A stretch of DNA of 64,000 nt from an uncultured Verrucomicrobiota bacterium (GTDB taxonomy: Bacteria > Verrucomicrobiota > Verrucomicrobiia > Palsa-1439). This document shows, one piece after another, positions 729-29,039 of the stretch. The notes under the pieces were generated by a model. The model saw only the letters and a list, made by a program, of their open reading frames with translations. It had not been told where the DNA came from and searched no databases. The stretch lies in contig CAZMKD010000147.1 in NCBI GenBank assembly GCA_964566575.1, positions 13,001 to 77,000 of the forward strand, in the 5' to 3' direction. Within the stretch, counting starts at the first letter, position 1, and each line of letters begins with the position of its first letter. The translations under genes and the position numbers were made by a program.

Positions 729-761
729 CGCAATTCAGGATGAGCGGCCGGCGGCTGCGAG

Positions 762-1037
762 TCAGTCTTCGTTGAACTTCAGGAGAAACAGCTCTTCGAG
801 CGCCTTCAACGCCGCCTCAGCGTCGCGTCCCTGGGCCGTGATCGTGAGCTTCGAACCTTGCGCTGCCGCCAACATCATCAACCCCATAATACTCTTGCCG
901 TTAATGATTTCACCATCTTTTTCGACTTCGATGTGGCTCTCGAATTTGCCGGCCACCTTGACGAACAACGCCGCGGGTCGAGCGTGAACGCCGAGCTTGT
1001 TGATGACGGTCATGTGTTTGCTGAGTTTGGCGGCCAT
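762..1037 (-). CDS. ptsH: phosphocarrier protein HPr
   Basis: 91 aa. The His15 region GVHARPA and the Ser46 region GKSIMGLM are both present. Confidence 0.9.
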   Translation of the reverse strand: MAAKLSKHMTVINKLGVHARPAALFVKVAGKFESHIEVEKDGEIINGKSIMGLMMLAAAQGSKLTITAQGRDAEAALKALEELFLLKFNED

Positions 1038-6026: not shown

Positions 6027-8404
6027 CCGAGAACGGTCAACGTCCCGCTGGTCACGCCGAGCTGACGGACCGCGTTCAGATGTTTGACGTTTTCAGTCTT
6101 GCCGGCAAGCAAATCCCGGTAGGCTCCCAGAATCTGCAGCGTCCGCGTCGCATCTTCTTCCAGAAGTTCGACGCGAAAGGTCCGTGCCCCGGCATCGAGG
6201 AATTGCCGGAGAAACTCCGCGCCAGTTTGTGCTTTCGCATGGAAGACGGTGTTCCGGCAACCAACATCCGCTTTGACCGGATGCTGGATGCCGACGCGGT
6301 CGCGCAACTTCAGGTCGTGCGTGTCGCAGGGACGACCGCAGTTCGTGCTGTCGGTGCCCGTGGAGAGGAACGCCGCGAATAGGCAGTGCTCCATGTGAAA
6401 CATCGGCATGTGCTGATGAATCACCAGTTCAAACCAACTCGCCGGCGCCGCGTGGAACAAATCGAGTACTTGCTGCGCATTGCAGTCGTACGAAACTGTG
6501 AGACGCTCCAGGCCTTCATGCATCAGCAGGTCGGCGCTCAACGGGTTAGCGACGTTCAATGAGAAGTCGCCGACTTTGCGCAGTTTGCTCGCGCGAAAGT
6601 AATCGAGCGCCCCGAGATTGCGGATAAGCACGCCGTCGGGCTGCGCATTGTCGATGAGCTTGAAGAAGCCCTGCTCACCGGCCTTCTGAATGCGCGGTGT
6701 GCCGAGATAAATCCGGCCGTGTCCGCGCACCAGCGCGACCGCTTCCGGATACCGGCGCAAGTCCTCGAAGTCCACGTAGATGGTTTGAAGACCGGCTTCG
6801 AGCGTCGCACGAACCTGGTCCAGCGTCCGACACAGAGCGATCAGTTGCGGTTTCATCTTTTGGGCAGTGGCTTTGGTAATTTGCGTGAGAAGCTGGGGCA
6901 GGATAGGGGACAGGGACGTGCGTTGCTCGACTTCCACCGGCGCATCCAGTTTGGAAACGAGCTCTCGGCGCAAGCGATTCAACTCGCTGACCGGCAGGAT
7001 GACCTGGCCGGCGAGCTTGTTGCGCACTTCACCGAGTTCGAAATCGGTTTCGCCGAGCCGCCCAAGCTGATCGCGTAGAACCGGCGTCGACATCGGTCGC
7101 TTGTATGCTGTTTGTAGGGGCATCGAGGAATGCACGCGTGTGCCGTTGGTTTCAATGGTGAGCAGCTTGCCAGCGGAACCGGTCACAACTAAATCGAGCC
7201 TGCGTTTCGGCCGGGGGATTTCGCCGGTGAAAGACTTGCGCAACTCACGTTCAAGCTGCGGGTCGCTCGTCTTCCAGACACGGTCGCCGGGCTTGAGCTT
7301 CGTGAAATCAATATGGCCGCGTTCAAAAAATAGTTGGCTCCCGCGAACCTGCCAGACGCGACCGCCTTGCTCGTTATCGGGATCGCCGCCGGTATCGAAG
7401 ACGACACCGTCACCGGCCTTGAGTGGCGTTTGCGGTTCGACTTCGACGTGGTCGTACTCGACATTCGTGACGAGACCGACGAACGGCCCGCGCTTCTTGC
7501 CGAAACGTGCGTGAACGAGTTGCTGGTGGTTCACACCGTGCATCCAGCCTGTATACAAACCGCGAGAAAATGTCATCTCGAGTTTGTACTGATCCTCCGG
7601 TGTCAACGCGGCGGCATCGATGGCTTTCCGGTACACCTGGCACGTCGCGGCGACATACTCTGGCGATTTGAGACGGCCCTCGATCTTGAAGCCCGTCACG
7701 CCGAGGCGAATCAACTCCGGTATCTCACGCACGGCGGCGAGGTCTTGCGGCGAGAGCAGATACCGGCGGTCGCCCAAATCCTTGAGCACACCGTCCACGA
7801 TAAGGTCGTAGGGCAGACGGCAGGCTTGCGCGCACTCGCCGCGGTTGGCGCTGCGTTGGCCGAGCGCTTCGCTGGTCAGGCACTGGCCGGAGTACGCCAC
7901 GCAGAGCGCACCATGGACAAATGTTTCGAGCGAGACGCCGTTTGTTTCGAACTTCGCCAATTCGCGTAGTGATGTCTCGCGGGCGATGACAACGCGTTTG
8001 ATGCCGAGCCGGGAGGCGAACGCGACGCCTTCGGGCGAGGTGATCGTCATTTGCGTCGAGGCATGAAGGTCCATGCGGACGCCGAGTTCCTTGGCGAGCC
8101 GCGCAATCCCGAGGTCCTGCACGATGACGACATCCACGCCCGCTTGGTCGAGGGCGATGAGTTCGCGCTCGGCGGCCGGCAACTCGTCGGTGAAAATCAG
8201 GGTGTTGAGGGTGCAAAACGCGCGGACGTTGTGGTCGTGGACGAAGCGAACCAGTTCCGGCAAAGAGTCCTCGGTAAAATTGTCGGCGCGCATCCGCGCA
8301 TTGAACTTCTGAAGTCCGAAGTAGATCGCATTCGCGCCATTGGCGACAGCGGCGCGGGCGCACTCGAAGTTGCCGGCGGGCGCGATCAGTTCGGGTTTCA
8401 TCGG
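6023..8404 (-). CDS. peptidase U32 family protein (tandem U32/collagenase-like domains)
   Basis: Contains the U32 signature ExxxGxxxxxxxSGxCxxS-like region (VAYSGQCLTSEALGQRSANRGECAQAC) and a second U32-like half. The start is assigned at MKPELIAPAGNFE. Confidence 0.8.
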   Translation of the reverse strand, partial: PMKPELIAPAGNFECARAAVANGANAIYFGLQKFNARMRADNFTEDSLPELVRFVHDHNVRAFCTLNTLIFTDELPAAERELIALDQAGVDVVIVQDLGIARLAKELGVRMDLHASTQMTITSPEGVAFASRLGIKRVVIARETSLRELAKFETNGVSLETFVHGALCVAYSGQCLTSEALGQRSANRGECAQACRLPYDLIVDGVLKDLGDRRYLLSPQDLAAVREIPELIRLGVTGFKIEGRLKSPEYVAATCQVYRKAIDAAALTPEDQYKLEMTFSRGLYTGWMHGVNHQQLVHARFGKKRGPFVGLVTNVEYDHVEVEPQTPLKAGDGVVFDTGGDPDNEQGGRVWQVRGSQLFFERGHIDFTKLKPGDRVWKTSDPQLERELRKSFTGEIPRPKRRLDLVVTGSAGKLLTIETNGTRVHSSMPLQTAYKRPMSTPVLRDQLGRLGETDFELGEVRNKLAGQVILPVSELNRLRRELVSKLDAPVEVEQRTSLSPILPQLLTQITKATAQKMKPQLIALCRTLDQVRATLEAGLQTIYVDFEDLRRYPEAVALVRGHGRIYLGTPRIQKAGEQGFFKLIDNAQPDGVLIRNLGALDYFRASKLRKVGDFSLNVANPLSADLLMHEGLERLTVSYDCNAQQVLDLFHAAPASWFELVIHQHMPMFHMEHCLFAAFLSTGTDSTNCGRPCDTHDLKLRDRVGIQHPVKADVGCRNTVFHAKAQTGAEFLRQFLDAGARTFRVELLEEDATRTLQILGAYRDLLAGKTENVKHLNAVRQLGVTSGTLTVLG

Positions 8405-20382: not shown

Positions 20383-22950
20383 TCACGGGCCTAGCGGTTT
20401 GTTGTCCGGGCTGCCCTGGCCACTGCCCGGTGCGTCGTTTCCCTTCGGACTGCCCGGCGGCGCCGTGGCGATGACGTTGCGCGCCCCGTTAGAGCGTTTG
20501 CCGCAGTGCGATCTCGCCGCCTGGCTGACAATCTCGCCCTTCTGTTCCTCTGTAATCAGCCCGGCTGCCAGGAATTGGTTTGCGGCCTTGGCCACCCTCG
20601 ACACGTACTGACCGTGGTTTCTCCACGTCCCGCCAGCACGCGGTCCCGAGCACGGCACGAGTTGGTCAATGCTGCAGCCGTGGGTGTCAACGACCGCTCC
20701 CGCCACGGTGTTCGGGCATGAATCAAGGTCGTCACGCACTCCATCTCCGTCGCTGTCCGGGTTCTGGACTTCAAACGCGCCGATGTCGCTGCCGTCGCCG
20801 CCTGCGGCGTTGGCAATGGCGAGGAAGTTAACCGGCCGGGGGAAACCGCGCTGGTCGGTGGCCGCGCCGCTGAAGTTCTTGCCCTGATCAATAGCCGGGC
20901 TGCCGGGGAACAGCGCGTGTGTAAAGGTCGGGCCGCCGTTGTCCGCCAGCGGGCCGAGCAGTGGAGGAGTGTTGGTCTGGTCGCCGGTGTTGGTTAAGAA
21001 GCCGCCACCGTCATCGCTGCTCAGGTTGTAGCCGAGCGAGGTGACCGTGCCGTTTTGATTGCTGATGGTGCTGCCCGAAGCGCCAGCGTTTAGGATGGTG
21101 CTGCCGATTTCCAACGTCGCGCTGGTGCCGCCAAAATCTTCGTTGAAGATGCCGCCACATCCAACCTCGGCCGAGTTGCCGCTCACTGTGCTGTTGGCAA
21201 TCGTCAGCGTCCCGCCGGCGTTGTAGATGCCGCCGCCTTCACCTTGGCCTTCACCCTGGGCCGAGTTGCCGCTGAGGGTGCTGTTGGCGATCTGCACGGT
21301 CGCGCTGCTTTGAAAAGCTTCATTCAAGATGCCGCCGCCGAAGGTGGCCGAGTTGCCGCTGAGGGTGCTGTTGGCAATCGTCAGCGTCGCGCTGCCACCA
21401 TTGAAAGCTGCGTTGTAGATGCCGCCGCCTTCATACTGGGACGAGTTGCCGCTGAGGGTGCTGTTGCTAACCGTCAGCGTCGCGCTGCCATTGTTTCCGT
21501 CGTTCCAAATGCCGCCGCCGGAGACAGCCCTGTTGAGGCTCAGCGTGCTGTCGACAACCGTCAGGCTCGCGCTCCCGGTTCTACCGTCGTTGTAAATGCC
21601 GCCGCCGCCGTAGCCGGCCGAGTTGCCGCTCAGGGTGCTGTTGGCAATCGTCAGCATCCCGAAGTTGTCGATGCCGCCGCCGCTACCGGTGGCCGAGTTG
21701 CCAATGAGAGTGCAGTCGCTGACAGTCAGCGTCGCGTGGTCGTTGTAGATGCCGCCGCCCGCGTCGTCTGGGAAATTGAGGCCGGCAGTGTGACCGTTGG
21801 TAATCGTCAGGCTGGAGATGGTGACGGTTACGGCGTTCGTAATGTGAAACACGCGGCTGGCGGCGTTGCCGTCCACCGCCAGATTGCCGGGGCCGGGGCC
21901 GATGATGGTCACGCTTTTCGTGACGAGCAGTTCGCCGCTGGTCAGCAGAATGGTGCCGGAGACGCCGGTAGCATCAATGATGTCGCCGTCCGACGCACAC
22001 GCCAGTGCCGCGCGCAACGAGCCGGGGCCGCTGTCAGCGGTGGTCGTGACAAGGGGTGGAGAGCACGGAAACCAAAGAATCGCGTCGTTTTGGCCCGTGG
22101 AACTATTATACGCGTATCCAACGATGTTGCTATTGGCATCAACACCTTGCGCAAAGGAACTCGTGTAGTTCGACGAGAGGAAGCTGTGTAGGTCCACCGC
22201 GCTGGCTGCGGTGCCGGACCACAACAGTGCGTGGGGGTTGCCGCCCGCCATGGTTCCGTCGCCGACCTGCTGGCTACCGGAAAGGCCGAGGGCTTCCGAC
22301 ACAATGAATCCACTGGGGTTGAGGTCCACGGCGCTGACGGCCGTGCCGGACCATAACAGAGCGTGGACGTTGCCGCCCGTGCTGGGGCCGTATCCGTGGC
22401 CGACCTGCTGGCTACCGGAAATGCCGTTGGCGATCGAGTCAGTGAACCCGCTGGGGTGTAGGTCCACGGCGCTGGCCGCCGTGCCAGACCACAACAGCGC
22501 GTGATTGTTGAAGCCCGCCATGGTTCCGTTGCCGACCTGCTGGCTACCGGAAACGCCGAGGGCGTACGACCAACTGAACCCGCTGGGGTGTAGGTCCACG
22601 GCGCTGGCCGCTGTGCCAGACCACAACAGCGCATGGCTGTTGCCGCCCGTGCCGGGGCCGTATCCGTTGCCGACCTGCTGGCTGCCGGAAATGCCGCCGG
22701 CACCCGACTCAGTGAATCCGCTGGGGTTGAGGTCCACGGCGCTGGCCGCTGTGCCAGACCACAACAGCGCATGGCTGTTGCCGCCTGTGAGGCCGGAGCC
22801 GACCTGCTGGCTACCGGAAATGCCGAGGGCGGCCGAATCAATGAACCCGCTGGGGTTGAGGTCAATGAATGTGTACTGCGCTTCGACCGCCACGGGCACG
22901 GCCACAATCGCCAGCGCGAGCATCCAAATGGTTTGTTTTCTCGATTTCAT
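20383..22950 (-). CDS. secreted beta-propeller-like/right-handed beta-helix adhesin-like protein with thrombospondin-type-3 (calcium-binding) repeat
   Basis: 855 aa. Signal peptide, then about six units of 'HALLWSGTAASAVDLNPSGF..GISGSQQVGNG', then GGGIYN/ANSTLSGNSA parallel beta-helix repeats, then a DSDGDGVRDDLD calcium-binding repeat. Confidence 0.8.
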   Translation of the reverse strand: MKSRKQTIWMLALAIVAVPVAVEAQYTFIDLNPSGFIDSAALGISGSQQVGSGLTGGNSHALLWSGTAASAVDLNPSGFTESGAGGISGSQQVGNGYGPGTGGNSHALLWSGTAASAVDLHPSGFSWSYALGVSGSQQVGNGTMAGFNNHALLWSGTAASAVDLHPSGFTDSIANGISGSQQVGHGYGPSTGGNVHALLWSGTAVSAVDLNPSGFIVSEALGLSGSQQVGDGTMAGGNPHALLWSGTAASAVDLHSFLSSNYTSSFAQGVDANSNIVGYAYNSSTGQNDAILWFPCSPPLVTTTADSGPGSLRAALACASDGDIIDATGVSGTILLTSGELLVTKSVTIIGPGPGNLAVDGNAASRVFHITNAVTVTISSLTITNGHTAGLNFPDDAGGGIYNDHATLTVSDCTLIGNSATGSGGGIDNFGMLTIANSTLSGNSAGYGGGGIYNDGRTGSASLTVVDSTLSLNRAVSGGGIWNDGNNGSATLTVSNSTLSGNSSQYEGGGIYNAAFNGGSATLTIANSTLSGNSATFGGGILNEAFQSSATVQIANSTLSGNSAQGEGQGEGGGIYNAGGTLTIANSTVSGNSAEVGCGGIFNEDFGGTSATLEIGSTILNAGASGSTISNQNGTVTSLGYNLSSDDGGGFLTNTGDQTNTPPLLGPLADNGGPTFTHALFPGSPAIDQGKNFSGAATDQRGFPRPVNFLAIANAAGGDGSDIGAFEVQNPDSDGDGVRDDLDSCPNTVAGAVVDTHGCSIDQLVPCSGPRAGGTWRNHGQYVSRVAKAANQFLAAGLITEEQKGEIVSQAARSHCGKRSNGARNVIATAPPGSPKGNDAPGSGQGSPDNKPLGP
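22198..22870. repeat. about 126-144-bp tandem DNA repeats (5 units) inside the adhesin gene
   Basis: Near-identical units each begin GTCCACGGCGCTGGCCGC(T/C)GTGCCAGACCACAACAGCGC. They start at about 22198, 22325, 22463, 22589 and 22733. Confidence 0.7.
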
Positions 22951-23558
22951 ATTTGGCTCCCTACTTTCTTTCGGTCGTTGTTTACCGGATACTCGTCATG
23001 GCTGTGCTCCTGATCAGTTTCGTCTCATGGCACGATCCGAATGCGGCAGAACGTTGCCGGTTGCGTCGCGTGATCGTTCAAGGCACAACAGCGGCAGTGA
23101 TGGTGATGGCGATGAACGTTTCATGAGTTGACTCCTTGCAGGTGTGTGCGGAACCCGGTAAACCGGGGTCTGCGGGTTGATCCGAATCGGTCGAGCGAGG
23201 ACGCCGTGACGAGGAACTGTTCGCTCTCGCTGGTGAAGTCGTCTGCCGACGACAATGCACCCGCAAACGATCCGCCGGCACCGAGATGCGGTTGGAGGCG
23301 GGTCGATTGGGCTAAGCCCGAGTACGGTCCGTATGCCCAAGAGTTCATCTTTCCCTCGCCAGCCGACCAGAAAGCAGAAACGAGGTTTGACTTGCAAGCA
23401 AATAATTTGCTGGCGCGGGGGCAGGACCCGGTTCGTTACTACACGCTGAACTGGCGCTGAACCTGCGGTTGGCCACGGAGTAAAAGGATTTGCGTTGAAT
23501 CGCTCTCTCGCGTTGAGAGCGTCATGCGGTCGTGTTAGCCTGCCGTCGCGTGGAGCGG

Positions 23559-23771
23559 TTACCCGGCGACCGGGGCGGCATTCTTCAGTGCGGCTTCGAG
23601 CGCGTTGAGCAAGCGCTCCTTTTGACGAACCACAGATTGTTGCGCGTCGAGCTTCTTTTCCAACGTCAGCCCCGACTCGGCTTCGGTGAGCCGTAGGAGC
23701 CGGTCGCCGCCGACTAGCTTGATCAGGTCGATCTGGATTTTGCTGCGATCCATCATGACTCTATTCTCCAT
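23559..23771 (-). CDS. hypothetical small protein (about 70 aa), overlapping the upstream gene by 11 nt
   Basis: MENRVMMDRSKIQIDLIKLVGGDRLL.... Its ATG lies inside the stop region of the upstream gene, which suggests translational coupling. Confidence 0.4.
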   Translation of the reverse strand: MENRVMMDRSKIQIDLIKLVGGDRLLRLTEAESGLTLEKKLDAQQSVVRQKERLLNALEAALKNAAPVAG

Positions 23772-24153
23772 GAAAACCGTGGAATTGCAACAGTCGGTTG
23801 AGATTCTCCGGCGACGCATCGCCCCAGCGCGCTTGGGCGACCTTGGCGGCCCGTTCAAAATCGCCCTCGTTGAACTCCATCAGGCTGGAGGGCGGCAGCC
23901 AACTCGCCACGGTTGCGGCTTCCAGAATCTCGTGATACAGCGTCACGGATAATTCTTCTTCGCTCAGCCCGTGGCGGATCAGCAGGTGAAATTCGCGTCC
24001 CGTGAGCCGCGTCTGGGCGAGCGATTCGCGTCCCAAGGCATCCACGATTGGCTCGCGTGTGAACTCGACGGTTGCGACCACAAAGCCACCATGTAGCCGG
24101 AGGTTATTGAACGCGGCGTGGTCAATCATGGCGGGCTGCTTCTTACCCCGCCA
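23761..24153 (-). CDS. hypothetical protein (about 130 aa), first gene of an overlapping pair
   Basis: MIDHAAFNNLRLHGGFVVATVEF...LYHEILEAATVASW.... GC3 is high, so it looks coding. I do not recognise any family. The longer track ORF (to 24762) overlaps the convincing methyltransferase gene on the other strand and is rejected. Confidence 0.5.
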   Translation of the reverse strand, partial: WRGKKQPAMIDHAAFNNLRLHGGFVVATVEFTREPIVDALGRESLAQTRLTGREFHLLIRHGLSEEELSVTLYHEILEAATVASWLPPSSLMEFNEGDFERAAKVAQARWGDASPENLNRLLQFHGFHGE

Positions 24154-24234
24154 TGCGGACGAGGCCAAGCCTTTTCGGGTGGCGTCCCCACAATCCTTTT
24201 GCCGGTGGAGGTGGCCGCGTGTTAGCCTCCCGCC

Positions 24235-24984
24235 ATGCGCGAACTCAAGAGCTGGTATCAGGACGACAATTTCTGGAAAGTCGTCGAGCCGATCCTGTTC
24301 GGCGAGAAGCGCGTTGCCAACGCTGCGGCCGAAGTCGATCAACTCACCAACCTCCTCAAGCTGCAAACGCCGGCCAAAGTGCTCGACCTCTGTTGCGGCC
24401 TCGGCCGGCACAGCCTCGAATTCGCGCGGCGTGGTTTCGCCGTGACTGGTGTGGATCGCACCGGCGTTTACCTGCGCCGCGCCCAGAAGCAAGCCGACGC
24501 CGAAGGATTGAAAATCGAATTCGTGCAAGAGGACATGCGCCAGTTCTGCCGGCCCAACGCCTTCGACCTCACGCTGAACTTGTTCACCTCGTTCGGCTAC
24601 TTCGAAAGCCCGGCCGAGGACCGACGCGTCCTCGTCAACGTCCACAAATCCCTCAAGCCCGGGGGCCGGCTCGTCATGGACCTGATAGGCAAGGAAATCA
24701 TCGCCCGTATTTTCCGCGAACGCGACTGGCACGAAGAAGACGGCGTCATCTGGCTCGAACAACGCAGCATCAGCCAGGACTGGTCATGGATCGACAACCG
24801 CTGGATTCTATTGCGTGGCGACAGGCGCGACGAGTTCCGCGTCTCCCACCGCATCTACTCCGCCGCCGAACTGACCGGCCTGCTCAAGGATTGCGGCTTC
24901 AAGAAAGTTCAAACCCACGGTAGCTTTGCCGGCACGCCGTACGATCACGTCGCGGAACGGTTGGTAGTTGTAGCGCACAAGTAG
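24235..24984 (+). CDS. class I SAM-dependent methyltransferase
   Basis: VLDLCCGLGRHSLEFARRGFAVTGVD (motif I) followed by LKPGGRLVMD. Confidence 0.85.
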   Translation: MRELKSWYQDDNFWKVVEPILFGEKRVANAAAEVDQLTNLLKLQTPAKVLDLCCGLGRHSLEFARRGFAVTGVDRTGVYLRRAQKQADAEGLKIEFVQEDMRQFCRPNAFDLTLNLFTSFGYFESPAEDRRVLVNVHKSLKPGGRLVMDLIGKEIIARIFRERDWHEEDGVIWLEQRSISQDWSWIDNRWILLRGDRRDEFRVSHRIYSAAELTGLLKDCGFKKVQTHGSFAGTPYDHVAERLVVVAHK

Positions 24985-24992
24985 TACCGGAT

Positions 24993-25075
24993 TGTAGGAG
25001 CGCCCTTCCGGGCGCGACCGGGTGGAGTGCTGATTCCATCCCCACAGCCCTCGCGCCCGGAAGGGCGCTCCCACA
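24993..25075. repeat. REPIN copy B
   Basis: TGTAGGAGCGCCCTTCCGGGCGCGA, a 33-nt spacer, then TCGCGCCCGGAAGGGCGCTCCCACA. It starts 9 nt after the methyltransferase stop. Confidence 0.85.
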
Positions 25076-25135
25076 ACCAGAGCCGGCACAGACGCCGCAT
25101 TGCAGGGATGCCGGCCGCATGTTACTCTGGCTCGC

Positions 25136-26374: not shown

Positions 26375-26394
26375 ACGAGGCAAGGAACAGCAAT

Positions 26395-26469
26395 TGTGGG
26401 AGCACCCTTCCGGGCGCGATTCCGGCCGCATCGCCACAAACCGGTCGCGCCCGGAAGGGCGCTCCCACA
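26395..26469. repeat. REPIN copy C
   Basis: TGTGGGAGCACCCTTCCGGGCGCGA, a spacer, then TCGCGCCCGGAAGGGCGCTCCCACA. Confidence 0.85.
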
Positions 26470-26721
26470 ACAACATCGAAGCCGCAACTGCCGCATTCTT
26501 CCGCCCTGCGCAAAGGCCGCTGGTCATGGCCGAATCATTGTTACTTCGTCACGACCAATGCAGCGGATATGAAGCCGATGTTCGCACACAAAGAGGCAGC
26601 CCATGTCGTCATCGAGTCACTGGTCTGGCTTCAGCAGGAGGGGCGAATCAGGCTAATGGGATTTGTCGTCATGCCGGATCATGTGCATCTGGCGTTTGTG
26701 TTGTGCGATGCGCGCGACCGG

Positions 26722-26793
26722 TCGCGCGCAGAAGCGCGCTCCCACAATCAGAAGGACAAGGCTGCCATTGTGGGAGCGCCCTTCCGGGCGCGA
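26722..26793. repeat. REP arms (one variant arm plus one canonical arm) inserted in frame inside the RAYT coding sequence
   Basis: TCGCGCGCAGAAGCGCGCTCCCACA ... TGTGGGAGCGCCCTTCCGGGCGCGA. It translates as ...CDARDRSRAEARSHNQKDKAAIVGAPFRARSG... between the HVHL motif and the SFKGYTGKKIN segment. Confidence 0.8.
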
Positions 26794-27064
26794 TCTGGAT
26801 TGTCGGTGGTGATGAATTCATTCAAAGGCTACACCGGCAAGAAGATCAACGAGTTGCTCGGCCGGCATGGGGACGTGTGGCAACCGGCCTACTACGAGCA
26901 TCTGGTCCGAGACGAAAAGGACTTTCGCGCACGGCTCGATTACATGCACGCCAATCCGATTCGCAAAGGGCTGGCGCAATTCGAGGTGGACTGCGAATTC
27001 TCGAGCGCGAATCCGAAGTGTGCGCATTTGGTCGATTGGAACTGGCTATTTGGCGTTGAGCCGG

Positions 27065-27089
27065 TCGCGCCCGGAAGGGCGCTCCCACA
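27065..27089. repeat. single REP arm abutting the fadB start codon
   Basis: TCGCGCCCGGAAGGGCGCTCCCACA is followed immediately by the ATG at 27090. Confidence 0.8.
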
Positions 27090-29039
27090 ATGAAGGGCAA
27101 GTCGATCAATCTCGAACGGGATGCTGACGGCATCGCGTGGGTGGTGTTCGATGACCCGAACGCCAAGGTCAACGTTTTCAACTCCGGCAACGTCGCGTTG
27201 CTGGACCGGATTCTCGACGAACTGGCGCAGCAGAAACCGAAGCGTGTCGTCTTCATCAGCGGCAAGCCGGACACCTTCATTGCCGGGGCGGACATTAAAG
27301 AGTTGGAGAAAATTCGCGACGACGCGCACGGCGAGGAACTATCGAGGGCTGGTCACAAGATTTTCGCCAAGATCGAGAACCTCGGCGTCTCGACGGTGGC
27401 GGCGATAGATGGCGCGTGCCTCGGCGGCGGCTGCGAGTTAGCGCTGGCGTGCAGCGCCCGGGTGGCGACTGACAATCCGAAGACACAGATTGGGCTGCCG
27501 GAAACGCAACTTGGCATAATTCCCGGCTGGGGCGGCACACAGCGGTTGCCGGGATTGATCGGATTGCGTGCGGCGCTGGAGATCATCGTGCCCGGCAAGA
27601 CGCTGGATGCTGCGCGCGCCTTGAAGGTCGGACTTGTGGACGCCGTCGTGCCCAAAGTTGCGTTGCGAGAGGCTGCGGTGAAAACAATTTGTAGGAGCGC
27701 CCTTCCGGGCGCGACCGGCCGGAGTCGCGCGCAGAAGCGCGCTCCCACATTGCCGGACTTTATCGTGCGTGCGATTGCTCGCAAGCAAACCCTGGCGAAA
27801 ACCCACGGTCATTATCCGGCGCCGTTGAAGGCGATCGAAATTGCCGGGCGCGGGTTCGAGGCGGAGGCGCGGGCGTTCGGCGAAGTGTCGGCAACATCGC
27901 AGTGCAAGAACCTGATTCGGGTTTTCTTTCTACGCGAGAAATACTCGAAGCTGCGGTTGCCGGGCGGCGAGAGAGCGAAGAAGATTGAGAAGGTCGGCGT
28001 GCTTGGCGCCGGCACGATGGGCGCCGGCATCGCGATGTGGTGCAGCGCGCGCGGCTTGACGGTGCGGTTGAAGGACATCAAGCCGGAGTTTGTTGCGGTC
28101 GGCATGAAACGCATCGAGGACGCTTACCGGGATGGGGTAAAGCGGCGCAAAATTACCGAGTTGCAGATGCAGCAAGGCATGGCGCGCGTGCATCCGACTA
28201 CCGAGTACACGGGCTTCGGTGATTGCAACATCGTCATCGAGGCGGTGCTGGAGAAGATCGAGATCAAGCGGCCGGTCTTCAGCGAACTCACGCCACTGCT
28301 CCGGCCAGACTGTGTTATCGCGTCGAACACCTCGGCGATTCCGATCGATGATCTGGCGGCAGCGACGGGACGGCCGGAGAAGTTTGTCGGGATTCACTTT
28401 TTCAATCCCGTTCACAAGATGCCACTGGTGGAAGTGGTGCGCGGCACAAAGACGTCGCCGGAAGTCGTCGCCGCAGCCGTTGAGTTTGCGAAGCAGCTCA
28501 AGAAGATACCGGTGGTCGTCAAAGGCGCGCCGGGGTTCTTGGTGAACCGGTTGTTGATGCCGTACCTGAACGAAGCCGGCGTCATATTGGGCGAAGGCGT
28601 GGGCGTGGAAGCGTTGGACAAGGCAATGGTGGATTTTGGCTGGCCGATGGGGCCGGCACGGTTGATTGACGAAATCGGCATTGACGTGACGCTGGATGTG
28701 GCACGCGAGTTGGCCGAGGCGTTTCGTGGCCGGATGATTGTCGCGCCAATTCTCCGGCAAGTGCACGAGCAGGGCTTGAAAGGGCGCAAGGGTGGGGCAG
28801 GGTTTTACATCGGGGACCGGCCGAACCCGGCCGTCAAACTTCCCGGCGGCAAGAGCCTGAGCGCCGACGAGATTCAGAAGCGGTTGATGAACGCGATGGT
28901 GGCGGAAGCCAAGTTATGCTTGAAGGAGGGGATTGTCGCGGCGGAGGACGACATTGATGTGGCGCTGATTTTCGGTACCGGCTTCCCGCCGTTTCGTGGT
29001 GGGCTGGTGAAATGGGCGCGCGATACGGAGGTGTGGTGA
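27090..29039 (+). CDS. fadB: fatty-acid oxidation complex alpha subunit-like (enoyl-CoA hydratase + 3-hydroxyacyl-CoA dehydrogenase), FadB/FadJ-like
   Basis: Crotonase fold (AAIDGACLGGGCELAL) and an NAD-binding domain (VGVLGAGTMGAGIA), 649 aa in total. Confidence 0.9.
   Translation: MKGKSINLERDADGIAWVVFDDPNAKVNVFNSGNVALLDRILDELAQQKPKRVVFISGKPDTFIAGADIKELEKIRDDAHGEELSRAGHKIFAKIENLGVSTVAAIDGACLGGGCELALACSARVATDNPKTQIGLPETQLGIIPGWGGTQRLPGLIGLRAALEIIVPGKTLDAARALKVGLVDAVVPKVALREAAVKTICRSALPGATGRSRAQKRAPTLPDFIVRAIARKQTLAKTHGHYPAPLKAIEIAGRGFEAEARAFGEVSATSQCKNLIRVFFLREKYSKLRLPGGERAKKIEKVGVLGAGTMGAGIAMWCSARGLTVRLKDIKPEFVAVGMKRIEDAYRDGVKRRKITELQMQQGMARVHPTTEYTGFGDCNIVIEAVLEKIEIKRPVFSELTPLLRPDCVIASNTSAIPIDDLAAATGRPEKFVGIHFFNPVHKMPLVEVVRGTKTSPEVVAAAVEFAKQLKKIPVVVKGAPGFLVNRLLMPYLNEAGVILGEGVGVEALDKAMVDFGWPMGPARLIDEIGIDVTLDVARELAEAFRGRMIVAPILRQVHEQGLKGRKGGAGFYIGDRPNPAVKLPGGKSLSADEIQKRLMNAMVAEAKLCLKEGIVAAEDDIDVALIFGTGFPPFRGGLVKWARDTEVW
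27690..27749. repeat. REPIN copy inserted in frame inside the fadB-like CDS
   Basis: TGTAGGAGCGCCCTTCCGGGCGCGA, then CCGGCCGGAG, then TCGCGCGCAGAAGCGCGCTCCCACA. It translates as ...TICRSALPGATGRSRAQKRAPTL... in the linker between the hydratase and dehydrogenase domains. Confidence 0.8.

Follow-up and report, generated by a model that had tools for sequence, protein, structure and literature searches.

Two adjacent minus-strand genes, here called A and B, were analyzed in a 64,000-nucleotide (nt) stretch of the genome of an uncultured Verrucomicrobiota bacterium (assembly GCA_964566575.1, contig CAZMKD010000147.1, positions 13,001 to 77,000; hereafter the window). The pair probably constitutes a small, self-contained and mobile toxin-immunity cassette, similar to toxin-antitoxin (TA) modules, that is widespread in Verrucomicrobiota and has relatives in Planctomycetota. 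This reading draws on the conservation of both genes, their linkage, fusions that place A at the toxin position of larger proteins, asymmetric decay of the two genes, and relocation of the pair between genomic sites. An initial annotation of the window had proposed a TA or other two-component module, and the linkage, the fusions, and the decay of A with persistence of B support that proposal.

Conservation and linkage of the gene pair

Many database relatives and confident AlphaFold2 (AF2) models place A and B far beyond chance open reading frames (ORFs). Relatives were counted at E ≤ 0.01 among 5.8 billion proteins, yielding 657 for A and 138 for B, all annotated as "hypothetical" and all from metagenome-assembled genomes (MAGs) of Verrucomicrobiota. 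When an A profile was run with HMMER over the full set of 1.84 billion cluster representatives, only 176 clusters were returned; the A family is therefore narrow and lacks detectable distant relatives. Two matches to this profile (P0249 and P0384) were rejected as low-complexity tandem repeats in which weak matches had been summed.

The initial annotation recognized neither protein family, and no curated family was matched by A or B here. Scans of both proteins against Pfam, NCBIfam and PADLOC found no match, the sole PADLOC hit, to a methyltransferase (0.05), being taken as noise. Pfam gave nothing even at E ≤ 10 for A, B, 13 toxin-type A domains and 22 B members, and none of its described Tox, Ntox or Imm families matched either protein, toxin-type members included. 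PDB searches with four profiles and one single sequence produced only chance-level matches (TOM6, flagellin, PhnH, RpoB and a designed diiron protein), and tblastn of A against plasmid and phage collections found no match.

A genome scan with one genome per species identified 80 loci and a metagenome set another 80, together 160 (individual loci are given L numbers below, and proteins P numbers). The genome loci span Limisphaerales, Verrucomicrobiaceae/Prosthecobacter, Chthoniobacterales, Opitutaceae and Methylacidiphilales; the family is usually single-copy, with 45–70% identity across orders of the phylum. Six-frame hmmsearch located B directly 3' of A on the same strand at 77/80 genome loci and 75/80 metagenome loci, and both genes are intact in 129/160. 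Co-occurrence in other genomes and conservation of the small ORF, which the initial annotation had left as points to check, are both borne out, since B follows A nearly always and has 138 relatives. All-against-all clustering of flanking ORFs revealed no further family in more than nine loci. Pairwise blastn with at least 400 nt of flank showed that similarity stops at the A start and the B stop in 1512 of 1684 locus pairs (75th percentiles, +2 and 0 nt). Several record titles of cassette-bearing MAGs (among L010, L023, L042, L060, L051 and L072) read "uncultured Bifidobacterium/Bifidobacteriaceae" or "Akkermansia muciniphila" and are probable taxonomic mislabels of lake or soil bins.

A domains at the tips of RHS and PT-HINT toxins

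The window copy of A is a standalone protein. In P0325, P0372, P0263 and P0410, the A domain (120 residues) instead forms the extreme C-terminus of a larger protein. P0325 (833 aa) contains RHS repeats (Pfam E 5.7e-22) and the RHS core end PxxxxDPxGL ("...DPSGL") followed by A, and P0263 likewise passes from an RHS core end into A. The domain follows PT-HINT in P0372 (E 8.6e-14), where the next gene encodes 70 aa, and a remnant of PT-HINT in P0410. A 66-aa ORF (MLRDDEIQFDSYLLDDGRRVYRATHIPSGLFVEDE...) that matches the B profile begins 2 nt past the P0325 stop codon (L086 7505-7705), and for each A fusion with DNA available a B homologue of 66–73 aa lies within a few nt of the stop. The toxin of a polymorphic toxin system is its C-terminal domain, and the immunity protein is encoded by the gene that comes next (PMC3482391). 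From its toxin-tip position and the B-like gene downstream, A is predicted to be a toxin domain.

The P0325 gene belongs to three tandem RHS genes with near-identical cores and different tips (L086 1401-10641; GCA_040766885.1, JAXGPP010000002.1). The tips are, in turn, an unknown domain, the A domain and CdiA_C, with a small gene after each of the last two; the one downstream of the CdiA_C-tipped paralogue is an immunity gene. Warhead swapping is seen here in textbook form, with a validated toxin domain beside A.

A second toxin-type cluster (L089, L092, L123, L135, L181 and L182-L184) has near-identical A tips joined to differing or truncated N-terminal sequences, and some of its sequences are assigned by NCBI to Isosphaeraceae (Planctomycetota). 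An overlapping B-like gene with the pattern M[KS]..END[VI]S..H..L.D..GYLRLTH.PSGL.V.A follows each tip. Displaced or truncated toxin tips at L089, L092, L123, L135 and L184 retain an intact B. At L182 (616-8865), the island that holds P0390 and its 73-aa B-like gene also contains a DUF433/PIN TA pair, a ParB-HTH gene and a fragment of a phage integrase. The P0390 pair abuts a glycoside hydrolase gene, which is likewise present beside the truncated copy in L184, an Isosphaeraceae contig.

Decay of A and persistence of B

A was inactivated with B intact at 15 loci, and the reverse was observed at one (L131; binomial p = 0.0099 given gene lengths). In-frame nonsense codons interrupt A at eight loci (L006, L018, L026, L027, L030, L046, L186 and L187), and A is frameshifted at L067, L073, L077, L083, L085, L150 and L158. 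The nonsense codons are TAG, TAA and TGA at differing positions, with a recurrent CAA-to-TAA change at Q39. Recoding of these stops was rejected because all three stop codons are used at different positions. One metagenomic locus is represented by three variants, in which A is intact (L188), carries Q22* (L187), or carries Q22* and a second nonsense change, W* (L186, 3628-3996), with an identical B in all (JGI 3300054704, 3300055099 and 3300055048, respectively). These variants appear to be putative toxin-null alleles segregating in nature.

B occurs by itself in Chthoniobacter flavus Ellin428, and L011 and L083 carry additional B-only copies. CfE428DRAFT_2175, a B homologue in a relative of C. 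flavus Ellin428 (L003 5504-6195), has no A beside it and is a possible orphan immunity gene. The genes that immediately precede it are nadD, a short rsfS-like gene of 68 aa and a Zn_ribbon_21 gene; its proximity to a ribosome-silencing factor may be fortuitous or may hint at an association with ribosomes. Decay of a toxin, retention of its antidote and orphan antidotes are together expected of toxin-immunity or TA modules and not of a housekeeping pair.

Relocation and duplication of host sequence

One comparison that shows relocation is L186, where B is 92% identical to the window copy and the cassette is at an unrelated locus with no methyltransferase nearby. A ParE-like/aminotransferase block is found on one side of that cassette and gspD_N0, ADH and M48 genes on the other. 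Nucleotide similarity between the window and L186 (blastn, 82%) is limited to 24180..23558, which comprises a 51-nt leader, A, a 4-nt gap and B.

Exact direct repeats of 14–82 nt occur on both sides of the cassette in 26/140 loci. With mismatches allowed, host sequence is duplicated on both flanks in 44/129 loci, over lengths of up to ~170 nt, at a threshold set to the 99th percentile of a mismatched-locus control. Each locus has its own duplicated sequence. In at least 11 loci, no more than 10 nt separate the end of the repeat from the stop codon of a long upstream gene in the same orientation. Often the duplication takes in the last codons and stop of the upstream gene, examples being the IleRS C-terminus (L050/L051) and a GlyA-like gene, among others. 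Four examples are listed in Table 1, and about 40 further loci have bracketing duplications of host DNA of 14 to ~170 nt.

The cassette (0.6 kb) encodes no recombinase, transposase or integrase. Candidate routes to the duplications are Campbell-type integration of a circle carrying the 3' end of a host gene and homology-anchored illegitimate recombination, as in RHS tip displacement. The recombinase-less cassette may spread by landing behind host stop codons and duplicating host 3' ends. In many loci its leader after the stop of a host gene is only 10–50 nt long, so it perhaps has no promoter of its own; a search of the window found no sigma-70-like promoter for the pair.

The window itself contains a 15-nt direct repeat around the cassette (Table 1). 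The copies are identical at 14/15 positions and are the only two exact-class matches in 64 kb, and they may be a remnant of a flank duplication. The flank-to-flank local score is 12.5, below the control threshold of 16.3 and not significant alone; the repeat was rejected as a standalone argument and counts only beside the family-wide pattern.

Predicted structures of A and B

The AF2 model of A (pLDDT 95) has three beta strands followed by helices at residues 57-75, 88-102 and 107-116. Seven residues (S61, H66, E67, E70, P80, G103 and L114) are invariant in 30 diverse A members, toxin fusions included, and Y65 and E88 are near-invariant, giving an overall motif of S..YHExxE..E. In the model, H66 and E70 lie one helical turn apart, and E88, which is kept in at least 90% of members and is Asp in one, opens helix 88-102, 18 residues after E70. 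The geometry is suggestive of the gluzincin HExxH...E site with Glu in place of the second His. The second-His position is Glu in all 30 members (H66-E67-x-x-E70), and E88, as a predicted ligand only, occupies the position of the third-ligand Glu of gluzincins. The top Foldseek matches were weak (IrrE/PprI, E 0.1), and the closest structural neighbors include CapP, IrrE/PprI, YbeY, Spartan, ArdC and aminopeptidase N. We therefore regard A as a zincin-like candidate hydrolase that is no member of any zincin family, because the fold similarity is only suggestive and the metallopeptidase warheads catalogued in polymorphic toxins are, in the available portions of PMC3482391, all HExxH. The protein is strongly acidic (pI 5.0, net charge −7.5), which disfavors a nucleic-acid substrate and favors a basic protein target.

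The AF2 model of B (pLDDT 82) is a beta-beta-beta-helix, the fold of domain 3, or GGQ domain, of peptide chain release factors (RFs). No helix-turn-helix (HTH), ribbon-helix-helix (RHH) or other DNA-binding fold is present in the model. Structural comparison scored B highest against RF1 (7.4 for 6osk, over 63/65 residues at 21% identity, and 7.3 for 1zbt), followed by mtRF1 (6.9, 24% identity), C12orf65 (6.5) and PrfH (6.4), with RF2 and ICT1 lower; two unrelated families, LptE (6.8) and type III secretion system (T3SS) chaperones (6.2), scored in the same range. As modeled, B has the RF GGQ-domain fold.

A sequence relationship was evaluated with hhalign, comparing a 124-sequence B profile with 10 GGQ domains of RF1, RF2 and PrfH taken from annotated records. 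The score was 18.0 (P 0.004) over 61 aligned columns, with one gap of 8 residues that coincides precisely with the GGQ loop. The 200 column shuffles all scored lower (9.5 ± 2.2, maximum 17.2). The invariant R22, G29 and E33 of B align on the RF motif R-I-T-H-x-P-T-G-I-x-V-E, and T-H-x-P-S-G is kept in the toxin-associated B proteins. The top PHROG match for both B subtypes was phrog_20323, "RF-1 domain peptide chain release factor" (E 0.0041-0.089, 3/22 members); the profile of this phage family has 73 positions and is about as short as B. HMMER found no Pfam RF-1 match and no PDB RF match for B. The GGQ motif is absent from every B member examined, and by this defining motif B is not a member of PF00472. 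B is probably a derivative of the RF GGQ domain from which the GGQ loop was deleted. The pI of window B is 8.9, near the 9.3 of RF GGQ domains, and that of toxin-associated B proteins is 5.8-6.7. A term search of the available portions of a survey of RF domains (PMC6514570) returned no toxin-linked, GGQ-less form.

Gene layout and neighbors in the window

Translation of the window showed both ORFs on the minus strand (Table 1). ORF A runs from the ATG at 24129 to the TAG at 23763-23761 and is 122 aa in length, which corrects the 130 aa given initially. For B, the ATG at 23771-23769 chosen in the initial annotation does open a 70-aa ORF with an 11-nt overlap with A, but the homologues argue against it as the true start. 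A length of 65 aa and an M-x-D-R-x-K-I-Q beginning are shared by 98 of the 120 B homologues listed, an N-terminal extension is found in a few gene calls only, and the distance from the last A codon to the beginning of the B match is 7 nt at most related loci (the stop plus 4 nt). On the basis of these lengths, N-termini and spacings, the true start of B is probably the ATG at 23756, 4 nt past the A stop, and the overlap is probably an artefact of choosing the upstream ATG. The tight coupling of the two genes noted initially thus holds, but through this probable 4-nt gap and not through the overlap from which it had been argued. Two small genes so closely spaced have the arrangement of type II TA pairs, and the position of a GGAG sequence upstream of B (Table 1) points to translational coupling. 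A terminator hairpin 3' of B was rejected, its fold energy being no different from that of shuffled sequences (z −0.9).

Table 1. Coordinates of the A-B cassette, associated window features and flank duplications at other loci
Feature	Position	Strand	Description
ORF A, predicted toxin domain	23761..24129	-	122 aa + TAG stop, MIDHAAF...FHGFHGE; 657 homologues, AF2 pLDDT 95
ORF B, predicted immunity/antitoxin	23559..23756	-	65 aa + TAA stop; start ATG 23756-23754
GGAG, Shine-Dalgarno-like	23766..23769	-	within last A codons, 9 nt 5' of B ATG
51-nt leader 5' of A, moves with cassette	24130..24180	-	blastn extent of window vs L186
15-nt direct repeat, copy 1, CGTGTTAGCCTGCCG	23531..23545	+	14 nt past B stop
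15-nt direct repeat, copy 2, CGTGTTAGCCTCCCG	24218..24232	+	88 nt 5' of A start, abuts methyltransferase ATG
Flank duplication, L050	5821-5902 / 6600-6681		direct repeat
Flank duplication, L066	1-81 / 733-813		direct repeat
Flank duplication, L010	5921-5971 / 6584-6634		direct repeat
Flank duplication, L042	5948-5986 / 6584-6622		direct repeat

The divergent methyltransferase gene described beside the pair is present at 24235-24984 (+), as is the adhesin-like gene at 20383-22950 (-). The latter encodes a Chlam_PMP-repeat protein of 855 aa, with N-terminal repeats of ~45 residues (HALLWSGTAASAVDLNPSGF...), then Chlam_PMP-type beta-helix repeats (NSTLSGNSA...) and a DSDGDGV motif in the C-terminus; it is not conserved beside the cassette at other loci. 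A REPIN had also been described as adjoining the pair, but the nearest one (24991-25077) lies on the far side of the methyltransferase gene. The window has four REPIN-like inverted pairs with a unit of ~26-31 nt (TTGTGGGAGCGCCCTTCCGGGCGCGA), at 24991-25077, 26393-26470, 26722-26793 and 27061-27091. They surround an ORF at ~26470-27093 (+) that is RAYT-like, with a weak match to IS200-like Y1 transposases. None of these neighbors was retained as a part of the module. No neighbor family recurs in more than nine of ~80 loci, which places the methyltransferase and adhesin-like genes outside it, and the REPIN in addition lies past the methyltransferase gene.

Discussion

The predictions that follow concern the toxicity of A, its binding by B, and the catalysis and target involved. 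A would be a toxin and B its cognate immunity protein, translated from the same transcript 4 nt downstream and most likely neutralizing A by direct binding. Free A would be toxic after loss of B or of the cassette, or when delivered on the RHS protein of a neighbor. For the standalone cassette in the window an intracellular role is the most likely, as a selfish addiction module or a protective one, and B would also give immunity to A-type toxins delivered by neighbors. In the best-supported step of this mechanism, A would be an acidic hydrolase with a three-stranded sheet, a helix bearing H66-E67-x-x-E70, and E88 on the next helix. With less support, B would be the peptidyl-hydrolase (GGQ) domain of an RF with its catalytic loop deleted. 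The least-supported step follows from such an origin, namely that B would be an uncleavable decoy of the natural, basic, translation-related target of A.

In a specific form of this last step, the target of A would be the GGQ domain of class-I release factors or of ArfB-type rescue factors, with B as an uncleavable or unmodifiable decoy that lacks the target loop. This form is suggested by the acidity of A, the RF ancestry of B and the precise loss of the catalytic loop, and we consider it distinctly unlikely at present. To our knowledge, the GGQ domain of release or rescue factors has not been described as a toxin target, and the literature searched likewise contained no such case.

Several observations weigh against the pair being a toxin-immunity cassette. 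A delivery domain is missing from the standalone A and a DNA-binding fold from B, which sets the pair apart from a textbook type II TA system. With the toxin gene first and an antidote that lacks a DNA-binding fold, the toxin-immunity cassettes of polymorphic toxins are a better fit than classical type II TA. The broad conservation (45-70%) across the orders of one phylum could fit a vertically inherited cellular function too. B is truncated beside an intact A at L131 and undetectable at L088. Finally, some disruptions of A in MAGs could be sequencing errors, which would mainly apply to the frameshifts and not to the nonsense codons.

The standalone A could alternatively be an exported interbacterial effector, or a reservoir warhead for RHS recombination, with B serving only as immunity against intoxication by self or kin. 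Secreted RHS and PT-HINT toxins do use the domain, the toxin-then-immunity order is that of polymorphic toxin loci, and orphan immunity genes and displaced toxin tips exist. However, standalone A has a start codon of its own that coincides exactly with the domain boundary, and it has no signal peptide, PAAR, MIX/FIX-like segment or homology to a pre-toxin segment. No secretion-system or RHS gene is a conserved neighbor, the window holds no second copy of A or B, and the cassette often lies right after the stop codons of housekeeping genes (ileS, glyA-like). An exported role is unlikely on this evidence.

A second alternative is that B acts at the target of the toxin, docking in the ribosomal A site or peptidyl-transferase center and shielding or rescuing ribosomes from a ribosome-directed A. 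The RF GGQ-domain fold of the B model and its RF-like basicity are consistent with such a role, as is the lone C. flavus B beside an rsfS-like gene. There is also a precedent in PrfH for an RF homologue as a counter-toxin factor (PMC9304027 and PMC9223846), and the proposed role loosely parallels that of PrfH-RtcB against colicin E3. Against it, a non-catalytic protein of 65 aa would have to fill ribosomes stoichiometrically and would itself block translation. Binding to the toxin is characteristic of the immunity proteins that accompany RHS toxins. The net charge of A (−7.5) is atypical for an RNA-directed enzyme, and toxin-associated B proteins are not basic (pI 5.8-6.7). Ribosome shielding is accordingly quite improbable. 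That the pair is instead a vertically inherited housekeeping module of Verrucomicrobiota (e.g., a metal-dependent hydrolase with an RF-like ribosome adaptor in translation quality control), later borrowed as a warhead, would explain its phylum-wide, usually single-copy occurrence at 45-70% identity and the RF-like B but is very improbable given the recurrent nonsense and frameshift alleles of A with B retained, the genomes with B only, a genomic position that is not conserved even among close relatives, the duplication of host sequence on both flanks, and the presence of a separate B downstream of each RHS or PT-HINT fusion.

If the toxin-immunity reading is correct, A adds to the warheads of RHS toxins and TA-like modules a toxin domain not described before, whose zincin-type site has the variant form HExxE, and B is an undescribed immunity family, apparently carved from a core translation factor. 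A free-standing toxin-immunity pair would then have colonized much of a poorly studied phylum. The RF ancestry of the antidote would be a concrete lead to the cellular target of the toxin, and the duplications of host 3' ends around a cassette that lacks a recombinase point to a means of insertion that merits explanation. Names could be given to about 800 clusters now annotated as "hypothetical protein" (657 A and 138 B).

Comparison with known systems

A toxin-immunity or TA-like cassette is a known kind of system. The libraries and literature searched contained neither of the two protein families nor the HExxE site, no RF-derived immunity protein, and no free-standing, recombinase-less cassette with duplications of host 3' ends.

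The C-terminal toxin/immunity cassettes of polymorphic toxins (RHS and PT-HINT; Zhang et al. 2012, PMC3482391, available portions) share with A-B the extreme C-terminal position of A, the small cognate gene a few nt past the toxin stop (a 4-nt gap in the window), the retention of the immunity gene by displaced or truncated tips, and orphan immunity genes. They differ in that A and B match no Tox-, Ntox- or Imm- Pfam family, and most copies of A, the window copy included, are standalone proteins of 122 aa with no delivery module. The A-B pairs are also scattered singly behind unrelated housekeeping genes and are not found in toxin arrays.

Type II TA systems share two small, translationally coupled genes, a patchy and relocating position, decay of the toxin gene with the antidote kept, and complementary charge (acidic A and basic B). 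In contrast to them, A-B has the toxin first, a B with neither HTH nor RHH, and no PADLOC or Pfam TA match, and it often follows a host stop after a 10-50-nt leader, perhaps with no promoter of its own.

Among zincins (gluzincins, ImmA/IrrE/CapP, SprT/Spartan and Tox-MPTase1-5), A shares the three-stranded sheet, the H-E-x-x-[ligand] helix and a Glu 18 residues further on. It differs in its invariant HExxE, in place of HExxH, and in having no sequence-profile match. Metallopeptidase warheads are known in RHS toxins, and most Tox-MPTase families have no listed immunity protein in the available portions of PMC3482391, whereas the A domain always has one.

The RF-1/GGQ domain (RF1, RF2, PrfH, ArfB/ICT1 and C12orf65) is mirrored in B by R-L-T-[H/E]-x-[P]-S-G-L-x-[V/L]-E, which corresponds to R-I-T-H-x-P-T-G-I-x-V-E, and by an alignment whose only gap is exactly the GGQ loop. 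B differs in lacking the GGQ motif and loop, the codon-recognition domains and the C-terminal tail domains. No described member is as short as B (65 aa), which also escapes detection by Pfam RF-1 and is genetically tied to a predicted toxin and not to translation genes. A catalytically dead derivative of the RF domain is already known in MRPS35 (Burroughs and Aravind 2019, PMC6514570, available portions).

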